A stretch of DNA of 64,000 bases, taken from NCBI GenBank assembly GCA_934756675.1, contig CAKVLG010000001.1, forward strand, positions 128,540-192,539, in the 5' to 3' direction. A program made the translations under genes and the position numbers. The DNA comes from an uncultured Clostridia bacterium (lineage in GTDB: Bacteria; Bacillota; Clostridia; Christensenellales; UBA1242). This document shows, in pieces, positions 10,356 through 62,518 of the stretch; position 1 is the stretch's first letter; each line of letters begins with the position of its first letter. The notes under the pieces were generated by a model. It was not told where the DNA came from. It saw only the letters and a list, made by a program, of their open reading frames with translations, and ran no database searches.

Positions 10356-10490
10356 ACATCCATAAAGAGTGTGCGAGGGACAGCCCCGTTGACCACACAG
10401 CAACCTGACAATGGTTAAGGTGCTAAAGGCTGACCGATGGGAACTATATAATTTTTAATCCTATCGGTAACGATGGGATTTTTTAATCCC
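10356..10490 (+). promoter_or_regulatory. SAM-I (S-box) riboswitch with terminator expression platform
   Basis: The conserved S-box core is readable: AAAGAG..GCGAGGGAcaGCCCcgTTGAccac..GCAACC....GGTGCTAAagGC. A terminator follows (aatcctatcg-gtaa-cgatgggatt plus TTTT, 10457..10485). Its 5' strand can alternatively pair with the P1 3' strand (cgatggga). Confidence 0.85.
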
Positions 10491-10524: not shown

Positions 10525-11525
10525 ATGAAAAAAAATATTACAAGCGAAAGCGTAAACATTGGGCATCCTGATAAAACTTGTGATGTTATCGCAGATGCCT
10601 TTTTAGATGAAGCACTCTCGCAAGACCCAAATTCACAAATGGCTGTTGAGTGTGCAATTAAAAACAATAAACTTTATATTTACGGAGAAGCAACAACAAA
10701 AGCGAAGATAGATTATGATAGTATTGCACGAGCAATCTTGAAAGATATTGGTTACAAAAATAAATTTAAAATCATTAAAGAAATAAGTAAGCAAAGCCCT
10801 GACATCAATCAAGCTGTTGTTAAAGATGATATTGGTGCGAATGATCAAGGCATGGTTTATGGATACGCAACTAACGAAACAAAAGAATTCATACCATTGC
10901 CTCTCTTAATAGCCCATAAAATAATGCGTCAGTATGAGGCGTTTAGAAGAACAAGGACCGATTTCTTTGCAGATGCAAAAAGCCAAGTAACGGTAGAATA
11001 CAACAATGAAAAACCAAGTAAAATTTCTACTGTTTTAATCTCAGTTTCTCATGATAAAAGGCTTCAACTTGAAGAAATACAACAGTTAATTAAAGAGAAT
11101 GTTTTGGATAAGGTTTTGAAAGAATACAAAAAATACACAAAAGACATTCGCTACATTATCAATCCAAGTGGCAAATTTACAATTTGGGGTTCTTATGGAG
11201 ATTCTGGTTGCGTTGGAAGAAAGATAGTTGTTGATACTTATGGCGGAGTTGGTCGTGTTGGCGGTGGGTGCTTTTCAAGTAAAAATGCGACCAAGGTTGA
11301 TAGGTCTGGTGCTTATTATGCAAGATTTTGAGTTTTTTAGCACCAGTTTTAGCAAGTGTCGTTTTTATCTTTTTAAAGTTGTTTAAGATTACTTATTCTT
11401 CCCATAAGCAAAGGCATTCAGCCACTTTTGGAGTTATTAAATCACTAAAAGCCCGAAAATATAGGCAAAAGCAAGACTCAAGCGCATTTTTCGCTGTTCC
11501 GTTAGAAAAATTGAGATTTTTATAA
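10525..11525 (+). pseudogene. metK: S-adenosylmethionine synthetase, disrupted (premature stop, then frameshifted remnant)
   Basis: The first 268 aa carry MetK motifs (GHPDK, GANDQGMVYGYA, DAKSQVTVEY, GRKIVVDTYGG, KVDRSGAY). The frame then ends at TGA 11329..11331, where about 110 more residues are expected. Downstream frames hold only weak MetK-like fragments (ITY..ISKGIQPL.., TFG..K). Confidence 0.8.
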
Positions 11526-45197: not shown

Positions 45198-48100
45198 TTA
45201 ATCTTCTTTTACTTGTTTTTTTCGTTTAATCACAATGTAAATTGGAGTTACAAAAACTGCAAGCATGATAACTATTAAAATAAGTTTTCCTTGCGTTTTC
45301 ATTGTTCTATTATACACCGCGTGAACTTCTAAATCCGACAAAACTTCGCCTGTTTTATCCCAACCAACAAATTCGTAATCATAAAAGATATCTGATGTAT
45401 TGCTAAGCTTAAAGCTTTTTAGCATTTCACCAGCTTCATAAGCTTCTTGCTTGTAAATAATATCGCCGTCTTTGTATGTAACAACATAAATGCGTTTAGA
45501 TTGCTTGAAAAGTGCGGTGAATATTTGGTCGCCAGTTATAAAGTTGTTCTTTTTATCCCAACCGATAAATTCATATTGGTAATATACTGTTGAATCTTTT
45601 GTTGGAATAAATAAGCTACCACTATTTCCTGTTAACACTTGTTCTTCATAGACCACAACATCGTCTACAACATATTGAATTTTCGAATACTTGTTAGCGC
45701 AAAGAAGGCTCTTTATTTTGCTATCAAACTCATAGTTCATGTCAAAGTTTTCTTCTACAAAACTATTGCTATTTATCACAAGAGCTGTAACTGGAACGCC
45801 AGTTGCTGATGTCATTTCGCCGCCAGTTATGTTTTTGCCAAAGGCTACATATTTTTCAAGATAATGTGTTTTGTCAATTGCTTCAATGTTAACAGTCAAA
45901 ATCGACTTGCCAGCAGAAGAACCAATTAGTGCACCTATTTTCTCTGAAGTAGCATCTGCCTTGTTTGTAAGCGTGGCATTTACTTTGCAGCCCACAAAAC
46001 TCATATATAGTTCTTTTTGGTCAAAATTACTATGACCGAGCACACCTACAATGCCACCAACACTTCCTTTTTGGACAAGCGTTATAACATCGCCACTGCT
46101 AATACAATTGATAAATTTTGTTGTCTTGTTTGTAGCGCTACCAACAATTCCGCCAAGTGAGCTTGCAATGTAAGCGTCTTCTAATTCGAAGTCAGCACCA
46201 GCGCCAAGAATTGTTGCGTTATTTACGCAATTTGTGATTGTAACAGTTAATGGCAATGTCTTGTTTGTGTTTTCCATATATCCAACAATACCGCCAGCAA
46301 CAACACCAGTTACAAGCGATGTATTATAGCAATTTGTAATACTTGCAGAAGTGCTAGAAACGAGTGTGTATGATGTATCGGCATCGTTATTGCCCATATA
46401 TGCTATCATGCCACCAGAGAAGTTGCTAGACGAGATTGTTCCATTGATATTGTAACAATTGTCCATAATAATTCCACTAAATGCAACACCAACAATGCCA
46501 CCAGCATAGTTGCCAGTTATTTTTGCATTTTGCAGCACAACATTTTTAATTGTTGGAGTATAGACTGTCGTTTTCCCACTCTTTGTTTGAACAGTGATAC
46601 CAGTCATACCAAACAACGATCCAAAATATATCATTGTGCGATAGCCGTTTGTATTGTTTTCGTCTTTCACAGAGCTTCCAGCTGTTATTCCCGTTATATT
46701 CTTAATTACATATCCGTTGCCATCAAAGTTACCAGAAAATGGATGGTTAACATCTGTAGCTTCGTTATTCATCATACCAATGCCAAGCCAAATCTTGCCA
46801 GCAAGGTCGATGTTTGCGCTAAGCTTGAAATATTTACCAGCAAAACTTTCGCCATTTGCAACAAGAACCGCAAGCCCTGCAAGTTGCCCTGCTGTTCCTA
46901 TTACATAAGGTTTGTCTTTTTTACCATAACCATAAAGCTCGTAGCCATAGCCATCAAACGCAGCAGCTTCGTTAAACCAAAAACTGTAGCTTGAAAATGT
47001 TGGCATTTCATTTGCTTTGTTTATCTTCCAAACATATATAAAATCAAACGGTAAAACGCCATTAATTGCCACCCATTCGTTTGACGCATAATATGATGCA
47101 TTGTCATAATCAAAGTCGCCTTCAAAGGCATTGTCTGTAGACATTTTATTGTTGACAATTTCGACAACAGCATTTTCGTTTGCCGTAAACGAGCTTTTGT
47201 TTGCAATTAAATATAAATCTTGTTTAACAACATTATTTTCAATATAAATTTTGCCGCGAGTATTTGTGCAATGTATTTCGCCAACCAAAACACCATGTGT
47301 TCCGCTAACAGTGCCACTCACTCTGCAACCCATGACACCGCCATAGACGTTTTCTTTAACGCTGACAAGTGGTGTATTTTCCATATCTTGCAACGATAAA
47401 TAGCCAACAACGCCGCCACATACTCCGTCACTTGCACTTGTTTTAACTTCGCTATTAACAATACAATTGACAATGTAATATCCATTAGCTCTGCCAGCAA
47501 TACCACCAGCTATATTGCCAAGCACTTCGCCCGTGTTGTAACAATTTGAAACATAGCCAGACGTATAATACTTATTGCCTTCGTTATCAAGTTCAGAGCT
47601 AATCGCACTGCCAACAAGCCCGCCTGCAATGTTACCAATTATTTTGCCTGTGTTATAACTATTTTCAATCGAACCATTTGCAACTAGCAACCCGACAAGC
47701 CCGCCAGCCGTTTTTTCTGAACTAATATTCATATGGTTTTCGCATGTCGCAATGCCACCAAGTAATTTGCCTACAATTGCACCAGTGTAACTAGCCGTTG
47801 TAGTTGCTCTGCCCGATTCAATTACAACGTCCATAACATATCCACCTTTATCAACAACACCAAATAAACCATTGTATTTTGTGTCGCTAATGTTTGTTAG
47901 TTCCAAGTTTTTAATGCTTTTTCTGTTGCCATCAAAAACACCTTCAAATGGTTTATCTTCTGTTCCTATTGGCGAAAGCCTTTCACAACCTAGATCCAAA
48001 TCTTTTGTAAGCTTAAATCTTGCGCTATTATATTTGCCTTCATATGCGCCAGAGTTCACAAAGTATATAACAGTTTTTAAATCTGCGACACTATTTATTT

Positions 48101-50009
48101 CATATGGCGAAACAACAGTTCCTTCACCTTTTAATACTGTTAATTGTTGGTCGCTCCAAACGGCATAGAATGATGCATCTTCGGTGCCCATTATAACTGT
48201 TTTGCCAGCTTCAAAAACCACACCGTCAGCATTTGTCCAATACCAGAAATATTTGCCATTATTTTCAAACTCGCATGCTGGAAGTTTGACGAGTTTACCT
48301 TCTTCTTCGCTTAATATAATTGGTGTGCCAGACATTGAACTGTCTTTATAAAACGAATAAGTGCGGATTTCACTGCCAACACCAACTTCGACAAAAGATT
48401 CTTTAATTTTTACTATTTTTTCTTGTGCATAATTAGCTTCGGTCGCAGCCCTTAATATTGCTTCTTTTGCATCAGCAATAGTTGCAGTTTCGGTTAGTTT
48501 TGGGAGCGAGTCATACAAGAGTTTTGCAAGCGCGTTAATGTCACTTACCACACCCTTTTGATACATTTTGTATATAGCAAGTGTAAATATTGCACAGTTA
48601 CTATGAACACTACCATTGTCGCACCTAGCATCTGCATGGTTATGGTTTAAGTAACAAAGCGGATTCTTTTCACGGTAGTTTGTTGGGTTACCACTAGCTG
48701 TTGGATTCATCATGTTACGAAGACATGTGTTACTTTCAGAAAATAAATCTTCTGCAAGTAGCCAAAAATTTGTGTCCGCCATGGTATAGCCCTTTCCCTT
48801 AGCTTCTATCATTGCGCCAAAAATATCTGAATAGCCTTCTGAAAGAGCACCAGACTCGTTAAGATATTCAAAATTAGTAACACTCGTTGTCATTGCGTGT
48901 GTGTATTCGTGACCGACAATATCTAAAGGTTTTGCAAAGTTGTCGTATCTCCCACCGCCATCACCAAATATAAAATATGATCTATCGTTTGATCCAAGTG
49001 ATACATAAGCGGCATTCAAGTATTCTGTTCCATAGTGCACAAGCGCAACCAGTTCTTTTGTTCCGCCAACAGTGTTAGCAATACCCTTTTTACCTAACAC
49101 TTCATCAAAAAAGTCGTATGATGCAATCAAGTTAACGTATGCCGTGATAGCAATGCTATCTGATATCGCCCCATCACTGCTGATGTAATAATCATATCCA
49201 GAATATGTTGTTTTATTGTTATTGTTGGCCATATATATTTTTCTATCGCTATCGCCAAGCACATAAAAAATATCACTGCCTTCAGTTTCGGTATATTTCA
49301 AAGTTCCAACTGTAACAGTTTTGCCAAAAGCATCTGTTTGCGATTTATTTTCTTTGGTTGTAGTGTAACCATATGTTGGAAGCTCAGATAAGTTTTCGCC
49401 AGCGCTGACGCTTGCAAGTAATTCACCAGTATAAGCATCAACAAAACAATAATTAAGCGATGTTGATTGAACTTCAAGTTTATAGCAGAAATGGTAACCG
49501 TTTTTCTCATAGATTACCATGCTTGTGTTATTAATCTTATAGTCACCAAAATCGTCAAGTACTTCTGGTAAGTTTGGGTTTAGTAATTCTGCACTTATAT
49601 CAAGATTAATGCCACCCTTAGCGTTACCGCTTACAGATAAAACATTGCCAAGGTTATTAACCGTCACAGAAACACTTTTGCCATAAACAGCAAAACCTTT
49701 GTAAACTTGAATAAACTTATACACTTTGCCGTAGCTAATTTTTGTTTCACTATAAGGCGAAAGCTCTGCGTTTACATCTGAAAGTACAAATCTATCTTTA
49801 ACCTTTTCTACCGCATTAAGCGCGCCAGAAAAATCGTTGGCATTTGTTTTAAAGTTGCCAGCGATAAATGTTGCACTTGCAGTTGTTTGCACATCAAACT
49901 TACTATTATTTTCATAAAAATTAAGCGGCGTGAAAAGTGAAATAATTGGCAAAATAATTGCCAGTAAAATTGTTAAACTAAATAATAAAAATTTCTTTTG
50001 TGTTTTCAT
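45198..50009 (-). CDS. Large membrane-anchored M4 (thermolysin-like) zinc metalloprotease with GLUG-motif and Listeria-Bacteroides-type repeat regions
   Basis: It has a signal/TM at the N-terminus and a propeptide-like region. HEYTH is at aa 367-371 (nt ~48897..48911) and the third zinc ligand lies in GALSEGYSDIFG. Many (A)GG(L/I)VG repeats span aa ~700-1330. Repeats of the Y.F.GW...G type occur near aa 590 and 1480-1560. The C-terminus is a TM helix plus KRKKQVKED. Confidence 0.85.
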   Translation of the reverse strand: MKTQKKFLLFSLTILLAIILPIISLFTPLNFYENNSKFDVQTTASATFIAGNFKTNANDFSGALNAVEKVKDRFVLSDVNAELSPYSETKISYGKVYKFIQVYKGFAVYGKSVSVTVNNLGNVLSVSGNAKGGINLDISAELLNPNLPEVLDDFGDYKINNTSMVIYEKNGYHFCYKLEVQSTSLNYCFVDAYTGELLASVSAGENLSELPTYGYTTTKENKSQTDAFGKTVTVGTLKYTETEGSDIFYVLGDSDRKIYMANNNNKTTYSGYDYYISSDGAISDSIAITAYVNLIASYDFFDEVLGKKGIANTVGGTKELVALVHYGTEYLNAAYVSLGSNDRSYFIFGDGGGRYDNFAKPLDIVGHEYTHAMTTSVTNFEYLNESGALSEGYSDIFGAMIEAKGKGYTMADTNFWLLAEDLFSESNTCLRNMMNPTASGNPTNYREKNPLCYLNHNHADARCDNGSVHSNCAIFTLAIYKMYQKGVVSDINALAKLLYDSLPKLTETATIADAKEAILRAATEANYAQEKIVKIKESFVEVGVGSEIRTYSFYKDSSMSGTPIILSEEEGKLVKLPACEFENNGKYFWYWTNADGVVFEAGKTVIMGTEDASFYAVWSDQQLTVLKGEGTVVSPYEINSVADLKTVIYFVNSGAYEGKYNSARFKLTKDLDLGCERLSPIGTEDKPFEGVFDGNRKSIKNLELTNISDTKYNGLFGVVDKGGYVMDVVIESGRATTTASYTGAIVGKLLGGIATCENHMNISSEKTAGGLVGLLVANGSIENSYNTGKIIGNIAGGLVGSAISSELDNEGNKYYTSGYVSNCYNTGEVLGNIAGGIAGRANGYYIVNCIVNSEVKTSASDGVCGGVVGYLSLQDMENTPLVSVKENVYGGVMGCRVSGTVSGTHGVLVGEIHCTNTRGKIYIENNVVKQDLYLIANKSSFTANENAVVEIVNNKMSTDNAFEGDFDYDNASYYASNEWVAINGVLPFDFIYVWKINKANEMPTFSSYSFWFNEAAAFDGYGYELYGYGKKDKPYVIGTAGQLAGLAVLVANGESFAGKYFKLSANIDLAGKIWLGIGMMNNEATDVNHPFSGNFDGNGYVIKNITGITAGSSVKDENNTNGYRTMIYFGSLFGMTGITVQTKSGKTTVYTPTIKNVVLQNAKITGNYAGGIVGVAFSGIIMDNCYNINGTISSSNFSGGMIAYMGNNDADTSYTLVSSTSASITNCYNTSLVTGVVAGGIVGYMENTNKTLPLTVTITNCVNNATILGAGADFELEDAYIASSLGGIVGSATNKTTKFINCISSGDVITLVQKGSVGGIVGVLGHSNFDQKELYMSFVGCKVNATLTNKADATSEKIGALIGSSAGKSILTVNIEAIDKTHYLEKYVAFGKNITGGEMTSATGVPVTALVINSNSFVEENFDMNYEFDSKIKSLLCANKYSKIQYVVDDVVVYEEQVLTGNSGSLFIPTKDSTVYYQYEFIGWDKKNNFITGDQIFTALFKQSKRIYVVTYKDGDIIYKQEAYEAGEMLKSFKLSNTSDIFYDYEFVGWDKTGEVLSDLEVHAVYNRTMKTQGKLILIVIMLAVFVTPIYIVIKRKKQVKED

Positions 50010-54775: not shown

Positions 54776-55660
54776 TTATCTTTTCGTTGCACCGCAACTT
54801 GGACATTTATCAGAATTTTCTTTTAATGCCGTCCCACAATAAGGGCATGTTGGTCCTTTTGCTGCGATAGCCGCTTTCTTTTCTTCGTGTTTAAGCTCAT
54901 TTTTAATTATTATATTTTGTTCGTGGTATACTTCTCTAGATTTTATAATAAGCAATACAAGTAATACTAGCGATACACCAGCAACCACACCAAACATAGT
55001 AGCTTTTGTTTTTTCAGAATTTCTCATTTTAACCAAGTATCTATATTCTGCATTTTGGGCAACGTAATCAGAGTTGATTGAATATCCATCATCATCTACC
55101 TTGATTTTTATTTTTCCAGTTCTACCACCTTTCGCATTGATTTCAGCTTGAGTGTATTGTGCATATGTTTCACCAGAATATTTTATTCCAGTAGCGTCCA
55201 TAACCTGATACGTCACATAATAATAAACAACACCGTCTAGCTTACAATATTCTTTAACAAAAACAATATCTGCTTCATGTTCTTCTCCATTTTGTGCAAG
55301 TGCCGTATAGAATGACATATCGTTTTCCATTATTTGAACAGCATCTCTATTCTTGTTAAACGAAAAAACATTGCCTATACAGAAACCAATCATAAATAAT
55401 AGCAACAAAGATATTAATGTAATATATAATCCATATTTTTCTTTTTTCTCATTTGCTGCTCTAATAACTGGGTTTTTATTTTGTTTCATTGTTTCGTCGT
55501 TCTCAGACGAGCCGCCACCAAAACCACCGCCAAAAATGAATATATTTCTATTTCCACTACCTCTAGAGCCTCCCCAACTGCGAGAACCACCGCGAGAACC
55601 ACCGCTATAGCCACCGCTTGAACTTCCTCCAAAACTACCATGTTGTGGACCTACTGGCAT
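54776..55660 (-). CDS. Hypothetical membrane protein with a Gly/Ser/Arg-rich N-terminus and a C-terminal zinc ribbon
   Basis: The N-terminal ~55 aa are low-complexity GGS/GSR. There are two TM helices. The C-terminus is CPYCGTALKENSDKCPSCG (a CxxC...CxxC ribbon). Confidence 0.6.
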   Translation of the reverse strand: MPVGPQHGSFGGSSSGGYSGGSRGGSRSWGGSRGSGNRNIFIFGGGFGGGSSENDETMKQNKNPVIRAANEKKEKYGLYITLISLLLLFMIGFCIGNVFSFNKNRDAVQIMENDMSFYTALAQNGEEHEADIVFVKEYCKLDGVVYYYVTYQVMDATGIKYSGETYAQYTQAEINAKGGRTGKIKIKVDDDGYSINSDYVAQNAEYRYLVKMRNSEKTKATMFGVVAGVSLVLLVLLIIKSREVYHEQNIIIKNELKHEEKKAAIAAKGPTCPYCGTALKENSDKCPSCGATKR

Positions 55661-55672
55661 GTTATTTTCCTC

Positions 55673-57097
55673 CTATTGTTTATTTTTTATTATTTCGTAG
55701 CCATTCGCATTATCGCGAATAACATATCCTTTTTCTTCGAGTTTTGCACGCAATAAATCTGCATTTGCCCAATCTTTGTTTATCTTTGCTTGCCAACGTT
55801 GTTTTGCAAGTTCCTGAATTTCATTTGGTACAATATTTTCTACTTTTTTAACTTCACTAAACTTCAAGCCAAGTACTTCTTCACCAAGCTGAAATACCAA
55901 AGTGTTAAGTTGCTCCAAAACATTCTTATCGCCGGAATTGACAGCCGCCATAATCATTTTTTGAAGTTTGATAAATTCACTTATTGCAACCGGCGAGTTA
56001 AAATCGTCGTCCATTGCCTTGATGAATGCATTTTTAAGATTAACAAGTTCTGGAATTGTTACGTTAACCTTATTATTCGTAATCTCACGCAATTTGCAAA
56101 CTGCTGCATTGATTTTGTCGTATTGATTTTTAGCAATTAATAATGCATTGTCTGAAAAATCCACATTTGATCTATAGTGCGAGCAAAGAATTAAGTATCT
56201 AATTACCATTGGGTCGTACTTTTTATATAGATCAAGTAATGTTGCAGAATTGCCAAGACTCTTGCCCATTTTTGTTCCATTGACTGTGACAAGCCCATTA
56301 TGCATAAAAAAGTTCATTGGAATATGACCATTTAATACATCTGCTTGTGCACATTCGCATTCGTGATGTGGAAAAATATTATCTATACCACCGCCATGAA
56401 TATCAAAGTGTTCGCCCAAAAACTTACGGCCAAGCACAGTACACTCTATGTGCCAGCCTGGGCAACCTTGCCCCCATGGAGATTGCCATTTCATAAGAGC
56501 ATCGTCGCCAACGCTCTTCCAAAGAGCAAAATCTTCGTTATGTTTTTTATCTGATGCAATTTCAATACGTTCACCGCTAAGATTTTTGTCTAGTGTGCGG
56601 TTAGAAAGCTGACCGTATTTTGGGTATTTATATACATCAAAATACACGTTGCCGTCTTTTGTAACATATGCATAGCCTTTGTTTATTATCTCTTGCACAG
56701 CTGCAATCATATCATAGACAAAACCAGTAGCTCTACAAGAAATGCTAGGACGCAAAATATTCAACTTATCCATAGCGTTAAAATATTCAACTTCATATTT
56801 ATATGCTATTTCATATGCGTCTAATTGTTCAATCTTTGCTTGCTTTGCAATTTTATCTTGCCCGTCATCGCTATCGCCAACAAGGTGACCAACATCTGTG
56901 ATATTTTGAACGTATTTAACTTTAAAGCCCTTATATCGCAAATATCTGTTAATTAGGTCAAAACTTGTGTAGCTTTTTGCGTGCCCCAAATGTGGCAAAC
57001 CATAAACTGTAGGGCCGCAAACATACATACCAACATGACCATTAATAACTGGCACAAACTCTTGCTTTTTGCGTGTAAATGTATTGTAAATTTTCAT
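55673..57097 (-). CDS. cysS: Cysteine--tRNA ligase
   Basis: HIGH-type motif LPHLGHAKSY, the CPGWHIEC zinc site and the KMSKS-type motif KMGKSLGN. 474 aa. Confidence 0.95.
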   Translation of the reverse strand: MKIYNTFTRKKQEFVPVINGHVGMYVCGPTVYGLPHLGHAKSYTSFDLINRYLRYKGFKVKYVQNITDVGHLVGDSDDGQDKIAKQAKIEQLDAYEIAYKYEVEYFNAMDKLNILRPSISCRATGFVYDMIAAVQEIINKGYAYVTKDGNVYFDVYKYPKYGQLSNRTLDKNLSGERIEIASDKKHNEDFALWKSVGDDALMKWQSPWGQGCPGWHIECTVLGRKFLGEHFDIHGGGIDNIFPHHECECAQADVLNGHIPMNFFMHNGLVTVNGTKMGKSLGNSATLLDLYKKYDPMVIRYLILCSHYRSNVDFSDNALLIAKNQYDKINAAVCKLREITNNKVNVTIPELVNLKNAFIKAMDDDFNSPVAISEFIKLQKMIMAAVNSGDKNVLEQLNTLVFQLGEEVLGLKFSEVKKVENIVPNEIQELAKQRWQAKINKDWANADLLRAKLEEKGYVIRDNANGYEIIKNKQ

Positions 57098-57153
57098 AAA
57101 GCTCGTCCTCTACTTTCAGTATATACATTGCACATCTCGTTGTCAAATATAAT

Positions 57154-57181
57154 TAAAAAAAACAAGGGGGTTGCCCTTGTT
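57154..57181 (-). terminator. Rho-independent terminator of the twin R-x4-H gene
   Basis: aacaaggg-ggtt-gcccttgtt hairpin overlapping the stop codon, followed on the minus strand by T7. Confidence 0.65.
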
Positions 57182-58949
57182 ATTCTGGTTGATCTTCATC
57201 AATATTTTTTGTGCGAGCTGTTTTCTTTCTTTTTCCATCTTCGTCCGCATCTTCGAAAAATGCTTCGCTACCAAATAGATTTACAAAATTGCCAAGCGAA
57301 CCCGTAACAAAACTGCGTTCGTTCCCGTTTTCGTCAATACTAACAAACTTCATTTCAATGTTAGATATATTTTTACTCTTTTTTGAATTCAAACAATATG
57401 AATTATTATTGTGCGAAAGTGAATGTCTGATTGTTTTTAGCACGTATATTTTTTCCATATCAGTTAAATTTTCTTTCTTGGTAGACTTATCATGTCTGTA
57501 TGTAATACCAGAAAAATCCATTTTATCTAGTGTCTTTTTTAAAACTGGCGAGATATCTTTTTCTGTGTAACAATTAGTCAAATACAGTTCGTGATAATAG
57601 CTTGTTACCAAACTGTTATATCCAAGCAAATAAGTGAGTTCAACAGCCATTTCAACGTTCAAAGCTTTTGCATCGACAAGGTCAAACATTTCAAGATTAT
57701 CGGTAACAGACTTGCTATCTTTGTCTAGTTTATCAAAAAATGCTTTTGTCTTTTTTAGTGTTGCCAAAGCTTCTTCTGCCACTCTGTCTTTTCCAAAAAG
57801 TGGAACTTTACCAGTTGCATCTTTAAGCATTTGATTGACACGTTTCAATTCTTCTAGACTTTCAGCTATTTCTTTTTGGTTTAAATCTTTTGCATATTCA
57901 CTTTCATCTATACCACGGCGCTTAAGTTCTTTTGCAACGGCTTGTTGAAGATTGTATATAAGTTTAGGATTTTCTTTACCAAATGCACCTGACGTATAGC
58001 TTGGGTTGTTCAAAATTGCCGCTGCAATTATATCTGCCTTTTGCTCAAAATTATAACCTTTGTAAAAATCATCATAATAATTGATACGTTCTTTTAAAAA
58101 GTTAACAAGTCTAAAGTGTTGATCTGTAATTTTGCTCGTGTATTCTTTTATATTTCTAAGAGCATTTATAACATCATCAAAAGATTCGAGATAATTACCT
58201 TGAACTGCACATTGTGCAAACAAATCTTCACGCAATTTTTTGTGATCTTGATAGAGTGTATTGCGGGCAAAAGTTTCAAACAATCCGCGGAGCCACATAC
58301 GTGAAGCAACTATCTTCATATCTTTGCCTAAAAATACAATTTTACCACTCGTGTCTACGAATGGAGCAACATGTGCAATACAGTTTCTAATTTCAATTAA
58401 AAGTTTTCTACCGTCAATTGTAGCTCTGTCCAAGCTGTCATCATTAATTGTAACATCTAGTTCTGGTGTGACTAATTCAACAGAATTAACAAACTTTAAC
58501 TTACCGTCTTGAAACTTTCTTTCACCCGTTTGTAAATAATACTTGCTGTCTTTAACTTCGCGAAGCTTGTATCTATTGCGGTAACCAGCTATTTTCTTTA
58601 AACCAAATTTAGCAAGAAATTCTACAACATCTGGATTTTCGATATAGTTTAAAGTAAATATGCCACTCGCCATTTTATCGCATTCTTCTTCTGTTAAATT
58701 ATCAATAATATTGTCTTTATTGTTTAACACAATATATGCTGTCGAATATAGCCAAAAATCTTTTAAAACCATATCACCAATGCCCGACAAGTCGACATCG
58801 CTAGCAAACCCATCAACCGATACACCTTGTGAAAGTTTTTTTATCAATTTATTTTGTTCTCTTGCAACCATGCAGCAAAGAGCCCTTAATCTTTTTTCTA
58901 TTTCTTCTCCACTTTCAATTTTTTCTTCTCTATTTTTCATTTCTTCCAT
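57180..58949 (-). CDS. Uncharacterised 589-aa protein with two R-x4-H motifs (candidate twin-HEPN RNase)
   Basis: It is a clean 589-aa ORF with its own promoter and terminator. The motifs are IEIRNCIAHV (R188-H193) and KTIRHSLSHN (R508-H513). The functional call is inference from motifs only. Confidence 0.5.
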   Translation of the reverse strand: MEEMKNREEKIESGEEIEKRLRALCCMVAREQNKLIKKLSQGVSVDGFASDVDLSGIGDMVLKDFWLYSTAYIVLNNKDNIIDNLTEEECDKMASGIFTLNYIENPDVVEFLAKFGLKKIAGYRNRYKLREVKDSKYYLQTGERKFQDGKLKFVNSVELVTPELDVTINDDSLDRATIDGRKLLIEIRNCIAHVAPFVDTSGKIVFLGKDMKIVASRMWLRGLFETFARNTLYQDHKKLREDLFAQCAVQGNYLESFDDVINALRNIKEYTSKITDQHFRLVNFLKERINYYDDFYKGYNFEQKADIIAAAILNNPSYTSGAFGKENPKLIYNLQQAVAKELKRRGIDESEYAKDLNQKEIAESLEELKRVNQMLKDATGKVPLFGKDRVAEEALATLKKTKAFFDKLDKDSKSVTDNLEMFDLVDAKALNVEMAVELTYLLGYNSLVTSYYHELYLTNCYTEKDISPVLKKTLDKMDFSGITYRHDKSTKKENLTDMEKIYVLKTIRHSLSHNNNSYCLNSKKSKNISNIEMKFVSIDENGNERSFVTGSLGNFVNLFGSEAFFEDADEDGKRKKTARTKNIDEDQPE

Positions 58950-58959
58950 AGCGATAGCT

Positions 58960-58988
58960 ATTATACCAAATTTTTACGATACCGTCAA
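58960..58988 (-). promoter_or_regulatory. Near-consensus sigma-A promoter of the twin R-x4-H gene
   Basis: On the minus strand: TTGACG (58988..58983), a 17-nt spacer, then TATAAT (58965..58960). The ATG at 58949 is only 10 nt downstream and has no Shine-Dalgarno sequence. Confidence 0.65.
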
Positions 58989-59047
58989 TATGCCCCCATT
59001 AAAAACTAGAGAAAAAAAGACAACCAGACATAAGTCTGGTTGATTTT

Positions 59048-59124
59048 TGGTAGCGGCTGTGAGATTTGAACTTACGACCTACCGGGTATGAACCGGGCGC
59101 TCTAGCCAACTGAGCTAAGCCGCC
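59048..59124 (-). tRNA. Elongator tRNA-Met (anticodon CAU), CCA encoded
   Basis: The reverse complement is ggcggcttagctcagttggctagagcgcccggttcatacccggtaggtcgtaagttcaaatctcacagccgctacca. It forms a cloverleaf with loop TTCATAC. There is a G1-U72 wobble and single mismatches at 27-43 and in the T-stem, so confidence is slightly lower. Confidence 0.78.
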
Positions 59125-59167
59125 ATGTCTAAATACCTTCCGCCATCTGAAAAATATTTAGTTATTA

Positions 59168-59242
59168 TGGTGATCCCGAGGAGAATCGAACTCCTGTTAC
59201 CGCCGTGAAAGGGCGATGTCTTAACCTCTTGACCACGGGACC
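59168..59242 (-). tRNA. tRNA-Glu (anticodon UUC), CCA encoded
   Basis: The reverse complement is ggtcccgtggtcaagaggttaagacatcgccctttcacggcggtaacaggagttcgattctcctcgggatcacca. Anticodon loop CTTTCAC. Confidence 0.9.
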
Positions 59243-59246
59243 ATTA

Positions 59247-59323
59247 TGGTTGCGGGGACTGGATTTGAACCAATGACCTTCGGGTTATGAGCCCGACGAG
59301 CTTCCGAGCTGCTCTACCCCGCG
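59247..59323 (-). tRNA. Initiator tRNA-fMet (anticodon CAU), CCA encoded
   Basis: The reverse complement is cgcggggtagagcagctcggaagctcgtcgggctcataacccgaaggtcattggttcaaatccagtccccgcaacca. It has the C1-A72 mismatch and the three consecutive G-C pairs in the anticodon stem that are diagnostic of bacterial initiators. Confidence 0.92.
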
Positions 59324-59406
59324 ACGACTACACTATAATAATATATTATTTTGTAAATGTCAATAACTTTTTTATATTTTTGCAAAACAAAAAGGAAGTT
59401 TCCTTC

Positions 59407-60225
59407 CTAAATGTTTTTCGTTGTGTTTATTCTTTCATAAATTTTTGATAACGGCACAATTTCTATGCCCATTTCTTGTATCTTTGGTAACATATCGCGA
59501 ATTGCTCTTGCCGTGTTTTCGCCACCTTCGGCGCCAACATGCCCGATTGCCACGCTATAGCCTTGCTCTTTTGCTTTGTCGCAAGCTTCTTGCAAGTTGT
59601 GTAAAACCGCACCATACGATTTGTTTTTGTCCGCTTCCAAAAACACATCTCGTCCAAGATATGCCATGTGATTACTTGCACAATATTCTTCGCACACATT
59701 GCTTACAATTGTTCTACTATCCAAAAAGAACATATTTTTTCTCTTCATATAATCATATATGGCTTTCATAAGTCTTGGATTTCTGCTAACGCCCGACCCT
59801 ATGTGAATATTCGCACCTTTAACTTCACCCATTGACTCAATCGCTGTATCTAGTTTTTTTGTTACACTCTCTTCGTTATCGTAATTGCGGATACAAATGT
59901 TACCATACCAGCTGTCTGGCAACTTTATGTGTGCTTCCATTGGCATATGCAATATTACTTCGTGCCCATGTTCTTTTGCACGCGCTGCATCTTCTTTACT
60001 ATTTTCGCAAAGTGGCATAACCGCACATGTAAGTGGCGCGCCAATAGACAGCATTGTTTCGACACCAGACCTGTCGTACCCACCAAAGTCATCAATAACC
60101 AAGGCGAGCATTGGTTTTGTGTCACTACCCGCATGACTAATTTTTGTTGGTTGCATGTTTGACACAATCATCATACACGCAAGTGAAATACATATAAAAA
60201 TAAATATAAAGTTTTTCATACACAT
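59407..60225 (-). CDS. Divergent polysaccharide deacetylase family protein (YibQ-like)
   Basis: LALVIDDFGG...GAPLTCAVMP...HGHEVILHMPME blocks, with an N-terminal signal/TM. The exact start is uncertain (ATG 60225 or 60219; the track uses TTG 60243). Confidence 0.75.
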   Translation of the reverse strand: MCMKNFIFIFICISLACMMIVSNMQPTKISHAGSDTKPMLALVIDDFGGYDRSGVETMLSIGAPLTCAVMPLCENSKEDAARAKEHGHEVILHMPMEAHIKLPDSWYGNICIRNYDNEESVTKKLDTAIESMGEVKGANIHIGSGVSRNPRLMKAIYDYMKRKNMFFLDSRTIVSNVCEEYCASNHMAYLGRDVFLEADKNKSYGAVLHNLQEACDKAKEQGYSVAIGHVGAEGGENTARAIRDMLPKIQEMGIEIVPLSKIYERINTTKNI

Positions 60226-60301
60226 AGTTTGTGTGCTTTTCAAATTTTTATACTAAACTCAATAAATTGACTTTTACAAGAAAATGAATTATTCTTAACC
60301 T

Positions 60302-62518
60302 ATGAAAATTACAGGCATGGTGGAATCTGTCGTCTATCGCAATGACGAAACAGGCTACACAATTTTGGACGTTACTCTTTCCGATGGCACAATAATAACC
60401 GCCACCGGCAAGTTTCCCGTGCTTGGGATTTGCGAAAGCGTGAACCTATATGGTGAGTTTAAACTCAACCCAAGATATGGTGAACAGTTTGTGGCCACCA
60501 GTGTTGAAATATTTGAACCAACAACATCAGACGCAATAATTAAGTATCTATCTTGCGGGTTAATTAGCGGCGTTGGTCAAGTAACAGCCACATCTATTGT
60601 AAATATGTTTGGCGACAAAACTCTTGATATCATCGAAAACGACCCCGGTGAGCTTGCCAAAGTTCGCGGAGTTTCTATGCGCAAAGCTCAAGACATTCAC
60701 GCAACATATAGCGACATAAAAAAAATGCAAAATGCCGTTATGTTCTTGCAAAAATATGATATAACTATCAACTTAGCGGTAAAAATATATAACGAGTATG
60801 GCGACAAAACCGAAATGATTTTAAAGCAAAACCCATACCAATTGATAAACGACATCGACGGCGTCAGTTTTAAAACTGCCGATAAAATCGCCGTGCGTAT
60901 GGGACTCGATAACGTCAGTCCATTCCGCATTAAAGCCGGCATTGTTTTTGTTATAAACGAACTTTCGGAAAAAGTTGGCGGCACAGTTGTTGAACTCAGT
61001 TCACTCATCAATAACTGCCTTGGCATTTTAAATTTTGCCGAAGAACAATCTGGCGAAATCGAACGCGAACTTACCAATCTTGAAATAGAAGGTGTTATTC
61101 GTCGCATTGACTTTAATGACACAGACTGCGTGATTTTGTCTAAAATGTATTATGCGGAAAAATCTATCGCTAGCAAAATTAAACTTTTGCAAAATTCGAT
61201 AAGCGACCAAATCGAAGATGTTTCCCTTGACCTAGAAGAATATCAACGCGAAAATAACATAATATTGCACGAAAGTCAGGTGTCTGCAATCAAATCTGCA
61301 ATAAATGAAGGATTTGTCGTCATTACTGGCGGCCCCGGCACAGGAAAAACTACAATTATTAAAGCAATTCTTAAAATTTTTAATAAAAGGCATAAAAATG
61401 TGACACTTTTTGCCCCAACTGGCAGAGCTGCAAAACGCATGGAAGAGCAAACGGGTGAAAGTGCAAAAACCATACATCGTGGGCTTGAAGTCAACTTTTC
61501 AACAGGCAGACTAAACTTTTCTCGCAACGAAAACAACCCACTCGAAACAGATGTTTTAATTGTGGACGAAGTAAGTATGCTCGATATCAAGCTTGCTTGG
61601 TCACTTTTAAAAGCGATAAGTGTTGGCACGCGTGTTATTTTTGTTGGCGACAAAGACCAATTGCCAAGTGTTGGTGCAGGCAATGTTTTATCTGACATTA
61701 TCACTTCTGGTGAGGTAACCGTGTGTGAATTAAAACAAATATTCAGGCAATCTTGCGACAGCAAAATTGTTATAAACGCTCACAAAATTAACGACGGTGA
61801 AATGCCAAACTTGTCAGAAAAATCTAGCGACTTTTTCTATTCTGCAGAAAGCGACCCACAAAAGGTCATAGACTTAATCGTTCAACTTGTTTGCAGACGC
61901 ATTCCAAACTATGATAAAAACATTACCAGTCGCGACATTCAAGTCATTTCCCCAATGAAAACGGGTGTGTGCGGCGTTAACAATATTAATAGTGCCCTTC
62001 AACAGGCACTTAATCCTCCAGCCCCAAATAAAAAAGAAAAGGAAATAAACAAAACAACTTACCGTGTTGGCGACCGCGTTATGCAAACCGCAAACGATTA
62101 TGAACAGACTTGGTACAAAGACGAAAATGGCGTAATAACAAACGGTCAAGGTGTTTTTAATGGTGATATTGGCACAATTGAAGAAATTAATTCGTACACT
62201 GGTGAAGTCGTCGTTTTGTTCGAAGACGGCCGCAGGTCTGCTTACTCAATTGTTGAAATCGAAAATCTAACACTTAGTTATGCAATGACTATTCACAAAA
62301 GTCAAGGTAGCGAATTTCCCGCTGTCATTGTTCCAATCACTGGTGGCAACCCAATTTTGTTTAACAAAAACTTGCTCTACACCGCCGTTACGCGTGCTAA
62401 AAAATTGGTAGTACTAATTGGCAAAAGCGGAAATATTTATTATATGATTAAAAACAATTATATAACAACTCGCAATTGCATGCTAAAGTCATTCTTAAAA
62501 AATGGAAGCTTGATGTAA
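60302..62518 (+). CDS. recD2: ATP-dependent RecD2-like DNA helicase (SF1B)
   Basis: 738 aa with Walker A ITGGPGTGKTT, Walker B LIVDEVSMLD, VGDKDQLPSVGAGNV, and the C-terminal YAMTIHKSQGSEF...LLYTAVTRAK. Confidence 0.9.
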   Translation: MKITGMVESVVYRNDETGYTILDVTLSDGTIITATGKFPVLGICESVNLYGEFKLNPRYGEQFVATSVEIFEPTTSDAIIKYLSCGLISGVGQVTATSIVNMFGDKTLDIIENDPGELAKVRGVSMRKAQDIHATYSDIKKMQNAVMFLQKYDITINLAVKIYNEYGDKTEMILKQNPYQLINDIDGVSFKTADKIAVRMGLDNVSPFRIKAGIVFVINELSEKVGGTVVELSSLINNCLGILNFAEEQSGEIERELTNLEIEGVIRRIDFNDTDCVILSKMYYAEKSIASKIKLLQNSISDQIEDVSLDLEEYQRENNIILHESQVSAIKSAINEGFVVITGGPGTGKTTIIKAILKIFNKRHKNVTLFAPTGRAAKRMEEQTGESAKTIHRGLEVNFSTGRLNFSRNENNPLETDVLIVDEVSMLDIKLAWSLLKAISVGTRVIFVGDKDQLPSVGAGNVLSDIITSGEVTVCELKQIFRQSCDSKIVINAHKINDGEMPNLSEKSSDFFYSAESDPQKVIDLIVQLVCRRIPNYDKNITSRDIQVISPMKTGVCGVNNINSALQQALNPPAPNKKEKEINKTTYRVGDRVMQTANDYEQTWYKDENGVITNGQGVFNGDIGTIEEINSYTGEVVVLFEDGRRSAYSIVEIENLTLSYAMTIHKSQGSEFPAVIVPITGGNPILFNKNLLYTAVTRAKKLVVLIGKSGNIYYMIKNNYITTRNCMLKSFLKNGSLM

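Follow-up and report, generated by a model that had tools for sequence, protein, structure and literature searches.

The window analysed here (the whole 64,000-nucleotide stretch of DNA, from an uncultured Clostridia bacterium) contains a gene for a 589-residue protein that belongs to no named family and carries two R-x4-H motifs of the kind found in HEPN ribonucleases; it raises the question of what this protein is and what it does for its host. To our knowledge, nearly all catalytic HEPNs of prokaryotes belong to conflict systems. The sequence-only reading had considered that it may be a single-polypeptide, two-HEPN RNase employed in defence or abortive infection, or as a stress-activated toxin; the analysis presented below supports the twin-HEPN part of this proposal, whereas the defence role is not backed by the genomic context.

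Gene layout and expression signals

The coding sequence was confirmed at positions 57180..58949 by the ORF list and translation and lies on the minus strand (ATG start; stop codon at 57180-57182); the predicted mass of the product is 68 kDa. A consensus scan revealed a sigma-70-type promoter, TTGACG-17-(TG)TATAAT, at 58960..58988 (minus strand; 11 of 12 matches, extended TG), the -10 element of which ends 10 nt before the ATG, and by direct reading the intervening spacer AGCTATCGCT is devoid of a Shine-Dalgarno sequence. Scan and direct reading agree with the autonomous, near-leaderless layout postulated earlier, and the mRNA is predicted to be leaderless or to possess a leader of 2-4 nt. At six orthologous loci a comparable promoter likewise lies directly before the ATG, the spacers being 6, 7, 10, 18, 19 and 19 nt long. 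The gene also has its own intrinsic terminator, as had been claimed (57161..57181, minus strand; terminator scan: 8-bp stem with 4 GC pairs, loop of 5, followed by a T-run), whose hairpin overlaps the stop codon. On the upstream side, the terminator of the tRNA-Met/Glu/Met operon (59021..59042, minus strand; terminator scan, 9-bp stem) is predicted to insulate the gene from read-through. With its strong, conserved promoter directly before the start codon, the gene forms a monocistronic unit.

Family distribution and conservation of the two motifs

The identical 589-residue protein is present in the NCBI, MGnify, ENA and Logan collections, where it is unnamed. Its family comprises 49 clusters or representatives among 1.84 billion, nearly all of them full-length proteins of 560-690 residues. 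A search of a 5.8-billion-protein index gave three matches, and the profile of the 38-sequence family alignment recovered the same three from this index, which is word-based. Five genome loci were found, all of them in metagenome-assembled genomes (MAGs) of uncultured Clostridia, and the JGI metagenome scans contained no relatives; the family, which is unnamed, has been found only in a small group of uncultured gut and rumen Clostridia.

As proposed earlier, the protein contains exactly two R-x4-H motifs, 320 residues apart and one in each half. Motif 1, LLIEIRNCIAHVAP (58371-58388, minus strand), corresponds to R188-N-C-I-A-H193 (AGA AAC TGT ATT GCA CAT) and motif 2, VLKTIRHSLSHNNN (57411-57428, minus strand), to R508-H-S-L-S-H513 (AGA CAT TCA CTT TCG CAC). 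The protein has only seven histidines, and 0.32 R-x4-H occurrences are expected by chance; the motif count carries little weight on its own (P(>=2) ~0.04), and the real support comes from the invariance of both pairs among the homologues. At about 25% identity, the alignment of 38 family members retained only ten invariant columns, and four of these are R188, H193, R508 and H513 (38/38 members); every homologue has exactly two R-x4-H motifs. Non-conservation of the motifs, named beforehand as a finding that would speak against a HEPN assignment, was therefore not observed. HEPN active sites are defined by Rx4-6H with a polar residue (N/D/H) directly after the arginine (PMC3710099). Position 189 is asparagine in 37 of the 38 members, and the residue following R508 is polar in 37 (N/H/D in 31; N in 21, H in 9, E in 4, Q in 2 and D in 1), so that both motifs display the R-polar-x3-H arrangement with family-wide conservation. 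The family consensus reads [ILV]L..[IVL]RN.[LFI]AH[S].P[YF] for motif 1 and L..IR[NH]A[LI]CHG..Y.LP for motif 2, both of the form hydrophobic-R-N-x-x-x-H, and the two motif segments align with each other in profile-to-profile comparison (E 7e-5 to 5e-4). Judged from the alignment, conservation within the family peaks at the two motifs.

Domain layout and predicted structure

The AF2 model, built with the 38-sequence alignment, reached a pLDDT of 81.9 and a pTM of 0.82; the latter suggests a defined arrangement of the domains. The N-terminal HEPN-like module (residues ~14-231; 58257..58910, minus strand; pLDDT mostly 80-96) is predicted to consist of helices 14-40 and 59-76, an insert, the motif helix 180-193, a beta-hairpin (204-215) and helix 217-231. 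The beta-rich insert (residues 97-168; 58446..58661, minus strand) comprises five strands, and conserved with it are the invariant G96, L159 and T161 as well as the near-invariant F98 and D134. The helix that follows the hairpin carries at its start the sequence M-W-L-R-G (M218-G222; 58284..58298, minus strand), in which W219, R221 and G222 are invariant and M218 is present in 37 of 38 members; R221 is a candidate for an additional active-site or RNA-binding residue. A central helical region (residues ~236-345; 57915..58244, minus strand) with conserved R288, Y332 and Q335 is followed by a long helical hairpin or coiled coil (residues 354-412; 57714..57890, minus strand; helices 354-381 and 384-412), which is poorly conserved and modelled with lower confidence (pLDDT 55-80). 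The C-terminal HEPN-like module (residues ~431-565; 57255..57659, minus strand; pLDDT 80-96) is modelled with helices 431-449 and 468-476, strands 483-491, the motif helix 497-512, strands 516-551 and helix 552-565.

In the HEPN definition, the motif is placed at the C-terminal end of a helix (PMC3710099). In the model, both motifs are located at such helix ends (180-193, and 497-512 with H513 next to it) and are followed by beta-strands and a helix, and the secondary structure of both modules fits the definition with an insert before and a hairpin plus helix after the motif; according to the AF2 prediction, the motifs thus occupy the secondary-structure position that defines HEPN active sites. 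The structural check suggested earlier gave a divided result, as the motifs stood at helix ends in HEPN-like order but Foldseek searches of the model against the PDB (library up to April 2026) and BFVD yielded no match at E<=1e-3, and hence no HEPN structural neighbour.

The chain terminates in the highly charged tail that had been noted before (residues 567-589; 57183..57251, minus strand), which is predicted to be disordered (pLDDT<50 for residues 570-589). Its end, DEDQPE, is a degenerate copy of a terminal QPG(D/E) motif of the family: QP[GNE] occurred within the last 12 residues of 13 of the 38 members versus once in the other 22,258 residues. The family tails have a median length of 40 residues and are net acidic in 28 of 38 members.

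Similarity to HEPN families

The failure of the sequence-only reading to place the protein in a family was reproduced in that the whole protein had no match at E<=10 in Pfam, NCBIfam or PADLOC; comparison with PHROGs and PDB sequences returned noise only. The PDB sequence searches (protein, family profile and two sub-profiles; the 2026 sequence set includes PbAbiF 8VZ6) produced coiled-coil noise or non-colinear chance matches (ribosome-inactivating protein, uS9), and the only matches of the family profile were designed coiled coils at the hairpin of residues 354-412. Two Firmicute "dimeric HEPN" proteins (G7MBT4 and A0A1Y6ANL6; Table S2 of PMC12165695) were tested as relatives and rejected.

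Fragments of the C module matched only HEPN-clan families recurrently in Pfam, and these matches cover the motif: pEK499_p136 (4 members), HEPN_RiboL-PSP (3) and HEPN_MAE_28990 (1), the best of them, to HEPN_RiboL-PSP, at E 2.7e-4 with 16.2 bits versus a gathering cut-off of 28.4 bits. N-module fragments matched Abi_2 once (E 0.062) and DUF4145 once. All Pfam fragment matches were below the gathering thresholds, and the family consensus sequences gave no HEPN match in Pfam; the profile check that had been recommended against Pfam HEPN and Cas13 models accordingly returned recurrent sub-threshold HEPN-clan matches and nothing at a curated threshold.

In profile-profile alignment with hhalign, Abi_2 was aligned to the N module at E 6.7e-4 and to the C module at E 4.1e-3 (64 colinear columns), the R-N..H of the family falling on the catalytic R202-N203..H207 of Abi_2; Cas13an was aligned at E 2.3e-4 over 59 columns (N module with HEPN2), with motif 1 on the HEPN2 motif, and at 2e-3. 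The hhalign probabilities were 8-45%. For both Abi_2 and Cas13an, the alignments of the family surpassed 50-60 column shuffles and reversed templates, and they also did better than the accepted link between Abi_2 and Cas13an, which in this test reached E 0.031. When the six motif columns were deleted, the score against Cas13an dropped to the null level (14.8, 15.1) and that against Abi_2 to the upper edge of the null (19.0; 20.8 versus a shuffle maximum of 20.5); this collapse implies that the detectable similarity is essentially the motif itself. Phage phiC2 AbiF served for the AbiF comparison.

This dependence on the motif is in line with an explanation in which the protein is not a nuclease at all: the R/H pairs would bind a ligand, phosphate or nucleotide or would have a structural role, and the likeness to HEPN would be convergent at the motif level. 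The confident model with no HEPN neighbour in Foldseek and the lack of a curated HEPN model at threshold point in the same direction, and non-catalytic HEPN or HEPN-like domains are known (PMC3710099; AbiA HEPN, PMC13064643). However, HEPNs without catalysis typically lose the motif (PMC3710099), the weak Pfam matches concentrate on the HEPN clan and on no other, and the family has two invariant hydrophobic-R-[N/H]-x3-H copies, both helix-terminal and both followed by hairpin and helix; chance convergence of two independent invariant copies in the same structural position is hard to accept. With the sporulation and division genes in the neighbourhood described below, a sporulation or cell-division factor (given yabP-yabQ-divIC) would be an option; the conservation of the neighbourhood is only partial, though, and the gene always forms its own transcription unit. 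A non-nuclease is accordingly regarded as unlikely.

The molecular interpretation as a twin-HEPN protein is carried by the motifs that are invariant at about 25% identity, by their position at helix ends, by the above-null alignments to Abi_2 and Cas13an and by the recurrent HEPN-clan matches.

Genomic context and inheritance

The neighbours are those named earlier, the tRNA-Met/Glu/Met operon at 59048-59323 (minus strand; upstream, two CAT anticodons) and cysS at 55673-57097 (minus strand; PF01406 on the identical gene). TRF showed the whole 64-kb window to be free of tandem or spaced repeat arrays, none were present within 10 kb of four homologues (L003-L006), and the ten Pfam-scanned neighbours between 45198 and 62518 contained no cas or defence domains. 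No partner or immunity gene was found in seven loci; the window and the homologue loci agree with the initial statement that array, cas gene and partner gene are missing nearby. A 91-residue ORF upstream of the L002 and L005 homologues was considered as a conserved partner and rejected, since it has no counterpart in the window or at the remaining loci; the 577-residue divergent neighbour in L006 was likewise tested as a paralogue and rejected.

These data bear on the possibility of a compact Cas13-like (Cas13an-type) RNA-guided effector whose CRISPR array is located elsewhere in the genome. The two HEPN-type motifs per chain, a length just above the 429-577 residues of Cas13an (PMC12165695) and the best profile-profile match of the N module, Cas13an HEPN2, would be in line with it. 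Its other hallmarks, an adjacent array and Cas13 homology, are missing: besides the array-free and cas-free loci, the family HMM scored trivially against Cas13an in hmmsearch (<=8 bits), no Cas13 occurred in the PDB sequence matches or among the matches listed by Foldseek, and the module architecture differs by its large beta inserts. This explanation is largely refuted and is the least probable of those considered.

Scarcely more probable is an AbiF-like type III toxin-antitoxin system in the form of a fused dimer, in which a cis-encoded small RNA would neutralise the RNase. It draws on the alignment of the motifs to the catalytic motif of Abi_2 and on the proposal that AbiD/F proteins are the ancestors of fused twin-HEPN effectors (PMC12165695; PMC12737573). 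In all six loci, however, no more than 6-19 nt separate the end of the -10 element from the ATG, too little for a 5' ncRNA, and the terminator overlaps the stop codon. In the Rfam gathering scan of the window only tRNAs and a SAM riboswitch 47 kb from the gene were detected, a scan that presumably included the AbiF-associated RF03085. Conserved direct repeats flanking the gene were absent from four homologue loci, PF07751 was not matched at threshold, neither by the protein nor by whole family members, and the gene is not located on mobile elements; the protein also departs from the AbiD/F pattern of about 290 residues with a single HEPN and an upstream cis ncRNA.

Regarding inheritance, a common neighbourhood (recD2, deacetylase, yabP, divIC and tRNA-Met/Glu) is shared by the window organism, L005 and L002. 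In at least seven assemblies the gene and cysS are next to each other on one contig, and the gene shows no GC anomaly. Twelve intact 589-residue variants were found at the strain level; their amino-acid diversity of 2.1% equals that of CysS, and the motifs have no variable site. In the species the gene is fixed, and in a clade of uncultured gut and rumen Clostridia it resides on the chromosome and is passed on vertically. Collections of phages, plasmids and IMG/VR viral contigs contained no relatives. The neighbourhood survey recommended earlier, carried out in seven loci, revealed no enrichment near defence islands or CRISPR arrays: in this small sample the neighbours were housekeeping genes, and the gene was never next to defence or mobile genes. 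The traits of a defence-island gene (defence or mobile neighbours, patchy occurrence among strains, presence in phages or plasmids) were thus not seen, and the suggested role in defence or abortive infection receives no backing from the context of a gene that is syntenic, vertically inherited and fixed in its species. Long-term synteny and species-level fixation are atypical of defence genes.

This context is in line with a further explanation, in which the same twin-HEPN RNase is domesticated for housekeeping or regulatory RNA processing as a bacterial counterpart of eukaryotic Las1 or Swt1. Its substrate would be a defined cellular RNA (in rRNA, tRNA or mRNA maturation or turnover), with no role in conflict. 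Long-term synteny with recD2, yabP, divIC and tRNA-Met/Glu at loci where RecD2 is only 58% identical, the intactness in all 12 strain-level variants with a diversity equal to CysS, the strong promoter conserved in six loci, the seven loci free of partner, immunity or mobile genes and the absence of relatives from phages, plasmids and viral contigs are all compatible with such an enzyme, and HEPN RNases with a housekeeping role, such as Las1, do exist. On the other hand, the protein has changed far more rapidly than the genes with which it is syntenic (27% identity versus 58% for RecD2, 49% for the deacetylase and 43-44% for YabP and DivIC), its distribution is very narrow, an in-frame TAA at a conserved Gln in one MAG copy suggests dispensability, and nearly all catalytic prokaryotic HEPNs are components of conflict systems (PMC3710099). 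The housekeeping explanation is considered rather improbable, although well ahead of the CRISPR and toxin-antitoxin alternatives. A more specific version is doubtful as well: a vertically inherited, constitutively expressed single-chain RNase, domesticated by the clade for core RNA processing or RNA surveillance and analogous to Las1 or Swt1, that would represent a CRISPR-free HEPN-HEPN fusion, independent of the one that led to Cas13, with the conserved acidic QPG(D/E) tail as a built-in regulator or docking motif. Its fold would be arranged differently from all solved structures and from all predicted viral ones.

A probable single-chain twin-HEPN ribonuclease

With this gene an undescribed, lineage-restricted family receives its founding member; the family most likely forms a distant branch of the HEPN superfamily and is probably a new one of twin-HEPN RNases, neither Cas13 nor AbiF. 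The molecular part of this interpretation, a predicted twin-HEPN-type RNase, is likely; for the whole, which adds a lean towards a resident, self-gated function in stress or against phages, we estimate a probability of about 0.45. Statements on function rest on motif conservation and the predicted structure. Two HEPN-like modules per chain would be joined by the helical region and the coiled-coil hairpin and followed by the disordered acidic tail. Each module starts with helices and an insert, continues with a helix that ends in R-[N/H]-x3-H and closes with a beta-hairpin and a further helix. Within the chain the modules may pack against each other, an arrangement known from Cas13 and other HEPN dyads, and R188/N189/H193 together with R508/H509/H513 would form a composite, metal-independent RNase site; this putative site would cut single-stranded RNA and leave 2',3'-cyclic phosphate ends.

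The protein appears to be made constitutively and without an antitoxin, guide RNA or partner gene, and if so, its activity must be restrained within the protein itself. An RNase without gating would be toxic when driven by a strong constitutive promoter, a consideration that speaks against catalysis. The restraint might be exerted by conformation, possibly with involvement of the acidic tail, or by a narrow substrate specificity, and a trigger would release it. Provided that the protein is an RNase, a resident self-gated stress or anti-phage enzyme is slightly preferred to a housekeeping RNA-processing enzyme.

If this interpretation is correct, a compact protein of 589 residues accommodates a two-HEPN site in one chain with no need of CRISPR, guide RNA, antitoxin or partner, and a twin-HEPN gene is kept as a stable chromosomal gene instead of a mobile defence cassette. 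It would constitute a second, independent case of the fusion of two HEPNs from which Cas13 is proposed to derive, a useful test of how such fusions stay non-toxic. Bacteria would gain either their first catalytic HEPN dyad of the housekeeping type or a new class of stand-alone, self-gated RNase. A name would also be given to a conserved "hypothetical protein" that occurs in abundant uncultured Clostridia of gut and rumen, and the structurally unmatched scaffold could interest developers of RNA tools.

Comparison with known systems

The earlier impression that no described system falls into this size class is outdated, as Cas13an proteins, compact ancestral type VI CRISPR effectors, have 429-577 residues; they are proposed to originate from the fusion of two AbiD/F-like HEPN genes (PMC12165695). 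Like the 589-residue protein, Cas13an consists of one chain, is similar in size and has two R-N-x3-H motifs, one per half, and its HEPN2 helix-hairpin-helix is colinear with the family N module over the 59 aligned columns. In contrast to Cas13an, the family loci lack a CRISPR array or guide, the context is one of housekeeping genes and vertical inheritance, and the proteins possess large beta-rich inserts, a coiled-coil hairpin and an acidic tail, all three of which are missing in Cas13an; the similarity is driven by the motif only.

AbiD/AbiF (Abi_2, PF07751; PbAbiF 8VZ6) shares with the family the catalytic flavour hydrophobic-R-N-x-[C/A]-A-H, and the C module is colinear with it also through the upstream conserved helix (PVEVAVN with PIWVAVE). 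AbiF has about 290 residues and one HEPN, acts as a homodimer under the control of a neutralising ncRNA from upstream of its gene and is usually encoded on plasmids and prophages or beside defence genes (PMC12737573; PMC13064643), whereas the protein described here has 589 residues and two motifs, lacks an ncRNA and a mobile context and does not match PF07751 at threshold. One feature of the HEPN domains of Csx1/Csm6 recurs in both modules of the AF2 model; the CARF sensor domains of Csx1/Csm6, their homodimeric state and link to type III CRISPR do not apply to the 589-residue protein.

For two HEPN domains in one non-CRISPR polypeptide, Swt1 and the AbiTii homologues provide a precedent (PMC3710099; PMC13064643). 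Swt1 is eukaryotic and fused to PIN, the AbiTii homologues carry an N-terminal AbiTii domain, and no sequence similarity of the protein or its family to either was detected. Las1 is a housekeeping HEPN RNase, the endonuclease of the eukaryotic pre-rRNA ITS2, with an active site formed from two HEPN motifs; it differs in being eukaryotic and a homodimer with the Grc3 kinase as partner, and it shows no detectable similarity to the 589-residue protein.

DARNA/PD-T7-3 and ApeA are stand-alone HEPN defence genes with a built-in sensor and no partner; their HEPN RNase is constitutively present but remains inactive until a phage cue, upon which DARNA cleaves tRNA anticodon loops (bioRxiv 10.64898/2026.02.22.705581). 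DARNA consists of one HEPN and a Pds5-like C-terminal domain and forms homo-oligomers, whereas the 589-residue protein has no PADLOC match and its context is not defence-like. By analogy, gating of the DARNA type is a plausible working model for the 589-residue protein.

A family with two invariant R-x4-H motifs

The open reading frame at 57180..58949 of the window exists as the sequence-only reading described it (589 aa, ATG start), except that its strand had to be corrected to minus. A regular-expression search of the translation returned exactly the two R-x4-H motifs previously claimed, LLIEIRNCIAHVAP (motif 1, R188-H193, minus strand) and VLKTIRHSLSHNNN (motif 2, R508-H513, minus strand), at a spacing of 320 residues. 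For a protein of this composition (27 Arg, 7 His), 0.32 R-x4-H would be expected by chance; a pair thus departs only slightly from expectation (P about 0.04), and the finding could not rest on the motif count alone.

The protein could indeed not be placed in any family: Pfam, NCBIfam and PADLOC gave zero matches even at E<=10, and PHROGs and PDB sequence searches returned noise only. Among 1.84 billion representatives, an exhaustive HMMER search detected 49 family proteins, nearly all of 560-690 aa, which can be aligned over their full length and are 25-33% identical to the query; the identical protein is present, without a name, in NCBI, MGnify, ENA and Logan. Scanning a single genome from each GTDB species gave five loci, all in MAGs named 'uncultured Clostridia bacterium' (human gut, goat rumen, roe deer). 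In the alignment of 38 family sequences (mean column identity 29%), ten columns are invariant, G96, L159, T161, R188, H193, W219, R221, G222, R508 and H513, and N189 is present in 37/38. The possibility that the motifs are not conserved among homologues is thus contradicted by the alignment; every homologue examined contains exactly two R-x4-H, and conservation in this tiny, unnamed family is highest at the two motifs. Their consensus sequences are [ILV]-L-x-x-[IVL]-R-N-x-[LFI]-A-H-S-x-P-[YF] (motif 1) and L-x-x-I-R-[N/H]-A-[LI]-C-H-G-x-x-Y-x-L-P (motif 2), and in profile-profile comparison of the N with the C half exactly these two segments align (E 7e-5 to 5e-4).

Disordered tails terminate all family members (P0005-P0043); their median length is 40 aa, and 28 of the 38 are net acidic (window protein: residues 567-589, 57183-57251). 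A QPG(D/E)(D/E)-type ending (QP[G/N/E]) is found within the last 12 residues of 13 of the 38 members (e.g. ...GQPGDE, ...KQPNDDE), compared with a single occurrence among the remaining 22,258 residues; the window protein carries a degenerate copy (...DEDQPE). QP[G/N/E] is a conserved short linear motif at the extreme C-terminus and looks like a putative docking or autoregulatory element. A further R..x[IV][IV][TS]G-like motif directly follows the globular domain in 20/38 members and is lacking in the window protein.

Profile comparison with HEPN families

A reference profile of Abi_2 (PF07751, the AbiD/F HEPN family) was constructed from 28 proteins, starting from AbiF of C. difficile phage phiC2, a characterised member. 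As positive control it retrieved the solved PbAbiF structure 8VZ6 (E 2.7e-55) and, in the same search, no Cas13; accepted HEPN families are therefore unconnected at the sensitivity of HMM-versus-sequence searches. In hhalign comparisons, the N-motif region matched Abi_2 with E 6.7e-4 and the C module, which contains motif 2, with E 4.1e-3 over 64 colinear columns; the R-N..H of the family fell in either comparison exactly on the catalytic R202-N203..H207 of Abi_2, and in the C module the conserved helix upstream of the motif (PVEVAVN) also matched Abi_2 PIWVAVE. For Cas13an, the compact type VI CRISPR effectors, an alignment of nine sequences cut at 400 aa was used (eight orthologues of Cas13an listed in Table S3 of PMC12165695 plus a related AlphaFold-DB protein listed in its Table S2): the N region matched Cas13an HEPN2 over 59 columns (E 2.3e-4, probability 45%) and the C module the clade alignment with E 2e-3, whereas the same procedure gave no better than E 0.031 for the literature-accepted relationship between Abi_2 and Cas13an. 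All Abi_2 and Cas13an scores exceeded those of 50-60 column-shuffled and reversed-template controls; without the six motif columns they dropped into the null range, and the detectable HEPN similarity hence corresponds essentially to the motif and its immediate context. HEPN families have been cautioned to relate to one another in just such a motif-based manner (PMC3710099).

In an independent test, C-module fragments of all members were scanned against Pfam, and the only recurrent families were those of the HEPN clan, matched across the motif region and below the gathering cut-offs: pEK499_p136 (four members), HEPN_RiboL-PSP (three members, best E 2.7e-4) and HEPN_MAE_28990 (one member). N fragments matched Abi_2 once and DUF4145 once. 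We assign a probability of about 70% to the reading that the family is a distant, new member of the HEPN superfamily; it is outside every named HEPN family.

Predicted structure

With a four-sequence alignment the AlphaFold model was unusable (pLDDT 48); the 38-sequence alignment gave a confident model (pLDDT 81.9, pTM 0.82). According to this model, two helices (residues 14-40 and 59-76) are followed by a five-stranded beta-rich insert (97-168), the helix that ends in R188..H193 (180-193), a beta-hairpin (204-215), a helix starting with the invariant MWLRG (217-231), a helical region (236-345) and a long helical hairpin (354-412). The C-terminal half comprises helices 431-449 and 468-476, strands 483-491, the R508-containing helix 497-512, immediately followed by H513, then strands 516-551, helix 552-565 and the disordered tail. 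The confidently folded two-module protein thus presents two HEPN-type motifs, both invariant and both placed where a helix ends. In the predicted secondary structure both halves fit the HEPN description, in which a polar N/D/H directly follows the Arg (PMC3710099). Foldseek searches of the whole model against PDB and BFVD gave nothing at E<=1e-3 (best E 0.09, TM below 0.1).

Transcription unit and translation start

The expression signals proposed earlier were all recovered: a TTGACG-17-TATAAT promoter with TG extension (58988..58960) whose -10 element ends 10 nt before the ATG, a promoter-ATG spacer (AGCTATCGCT) devoid of a Shine-Dalgarno sequence, and an own hairpin terminator (57181..57161) overlapping the stop codon. 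A second, distinct terminator (59042..59021) ends the upstream tRNA-Met/Glu/Met operon; the GC content of the gene (0.33) is like that of its surroundings. The gene is a separate transcription unit at every locus, and in six loci (window, L001, L002, L004, L005, L006) a near-consensus TTGAC[GT]-17-TA[TA]AAT promoter abuts the ATG. In three of them the spacer between -10 element and ATG is 6, 7 or 10 nt without Shine-Dalgarno sequence, and the mRNA is consequently leaderless or nearly so; the other three have a short leader (18-19 nt) with an AGGA/AGGAG-type Shine-Dalgarno sequence. The mode of translation initiation is therefore evolutionarily labile, while the strong promoter is kept. The six loci offer no space for a 5' ncRNA between promoter and ATG, and in the window Rfam detected, apart from tRNAs and a distant SAM riboswitch, neither an AbiF-type RNA nor any other ncRNA. 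Expression is autonomous and probably constitutive.

Genomic neighbourhood and inheritance

In agreement with the reported lack of CRISPR/cas context, the whole 64-kb window contains zero tandem or spaced repeat arrays, and no cas or defence gene is present at 45-62.5 kb, where genes encode an M4 peptidase, a sugar transferase, an ATP-grasp enzyme, MscL, a GNAT acetyltransferase, a zinc-ribbon membrane protein, CysS, a polysaccharide deacetylase and RecD2. The peptidase (45198-50009, minus strand) is a secreted-type, thermolysin-like metallopeptidase of 1603 aa with FTP propeptide and GLUG motifs. The intergenic region upstream of cysS is just 82 nt long (57098-57179) and holds its own promoter (TTGACA-17-TATACT, 57146..57118); in Firmicutes cysS is commonly controlled by a T-box, and Rfam detected no T-box leader anywhere in the window. 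Directly downstream of cysS, the gene at 54776-55660 (minus strand) encodes a 294-aa protein with a Gly/Ser/Arg-rich low-complexity N-terminus derived from 12-nt tandem repeats (55509-55641), hydrophobic stretches that read as probable transmembrane segments, and a C-terminal zinc ribbon. A SAM-I riboswitch (RF00162, 58.9 bits) is located at 10357-10479 (plus strand), upstream of an ORF at 10525-11331.

At the loci examined, the neighbours are housekeeping genes that differ by locus: CysS and tRNAs; SecA, aldehyde dehydrogenase and DHFR-ThyA-FolD; PGI, transglutaminase and RecR-YbaB-DnaX; ribosomal protein L9, MatE and DUF1540; DivIC. One neighbourhood is common, with local rearrangement, to three lineages, i.e. 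the window organism, the goat-rumen MAG L005 and L002 (window 59048-62518; L009 1495-7770; L005 5356-12178; L002 378-2965). The order is divIC<-yabQ-like<-yabP<-recD2 followed by deacetylase->tRNA-Met/Glu/Met->gene->cysS in the window organism, deacetylase<- followed by recD2->yabP->yabQ-like->divIC->91-aa ORF->gene->tRNA-Met->tRNA-Glu in L005, and divIC->91-aa ORF->gene in L002; in L004 a tRNA-Met/Glu pair lies 5 kb downstream of the gene. The position between divIC and tRNA-Met/Glu that the gene takes in L005 and L002 is presumably filled in B. subtilis by the S1-domain gene yabR. The conserved ORF of about 91 aa directly upstream of the homologue in L002 and L005, which are related lineages (L002 830-1105, L005 9621-9896; copies 52% identical), has no Pfam family, has no counterpart in the window or at the other loci, and ends in ...EEQPEK/...EIQPEK, recalling the tail motif of the twin-HEPN-like family.

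Between the window organism and L005, identity amounts to 58% for RecD2, 49% for the deacetylase, 44% for DivIC and 43% for YabP, versus 27% for the 589-aa protein; together with the shared neighbourhood, this indicates an old, vertically inherited resident that outpaces its neighbours in divergence. Within the species, 12/12 variants are intact at 589 aa without variable sites in the motifs; the mean pairwise amino-acid difference is 2.1% for the gene product, 2.1% for CysS and 1.2% for RecD2, and gene and cysS occur on common contigs in at least seven assemblies. The homologue of MAG CAOJFR01 (L003) has an in-frame TAA at about 10316-10318 (codon 138 in the frame from 9905) at a conserved family Gln (IQDG), either a pseudogenising CAA>TAA mutation or an assembly error. 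Searches of 50,697 phage records, of 72,556 plasmids and of IMG/VR uncovered no relatives. The gene is a stable chromosomal resident without a partner.

Possible function

Synteny across lineages, fixation at species level, the housekeeping neighbours and the absence from the mobile elements searched point towards a domesticated role in RNA processing. However, catalytic prokaryotic HEPNs are overwhelmingly conflict genes, and this prior agrees with the fast divergence of the protein and the L003 copy with its in-frame stop. If the protein is an RNase, we lean slightly towards a resident stress or anti-phage enzyme over housekeeping RNA processing, although the data are not decisive.

In either role, the two modules would build one composite, metal-independent active site, by analogy with HEPN homodimers or with Cas13, in which HEPN1 and HEPN2 dimerise intramolecularly (PMC12165695). 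Since it would be made constitutively without antitoxin or guide, such an RNase must be self-restrained. This could be accomplished as in DARNA, a stand-alone HEPN defence protein in which the active site stays occluded until it is released by a phage cue (bioRxiv 10.64898/2026.02.22.705581); alternatively, a narrow substrate specificity may suffice.

Comparison with known systems

By layout, the closest known system is Cas13an, whose twin-HEPN effectors span 429-577 aa, and the earlier view that the size class matches no described system is therefore outdated. In contrast to Cas13an, the locus of the 589-aa protein lacks the defining CRISPR array, and no homology can be detected beyond the motif. 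AbiD/F proteins have the motif flavour in common with the 589-aa protein, but their size, oligomeric logic, mobility and dependence on an ncRNA are different. Known non-CRISPR HEPN dyads include Swt1, AbiTii homologues and the AFDB 'dimeric HEPN' proteins (Table S2, PMC12165695); two bacterial representatives of the latter were compared with the family and proved unrelated. The family is new and combines a twin-HEPN-like architecture, for which PDB and BFVD held no structural neighbour at E<=1e-3, with an atypical, core-genome life style.
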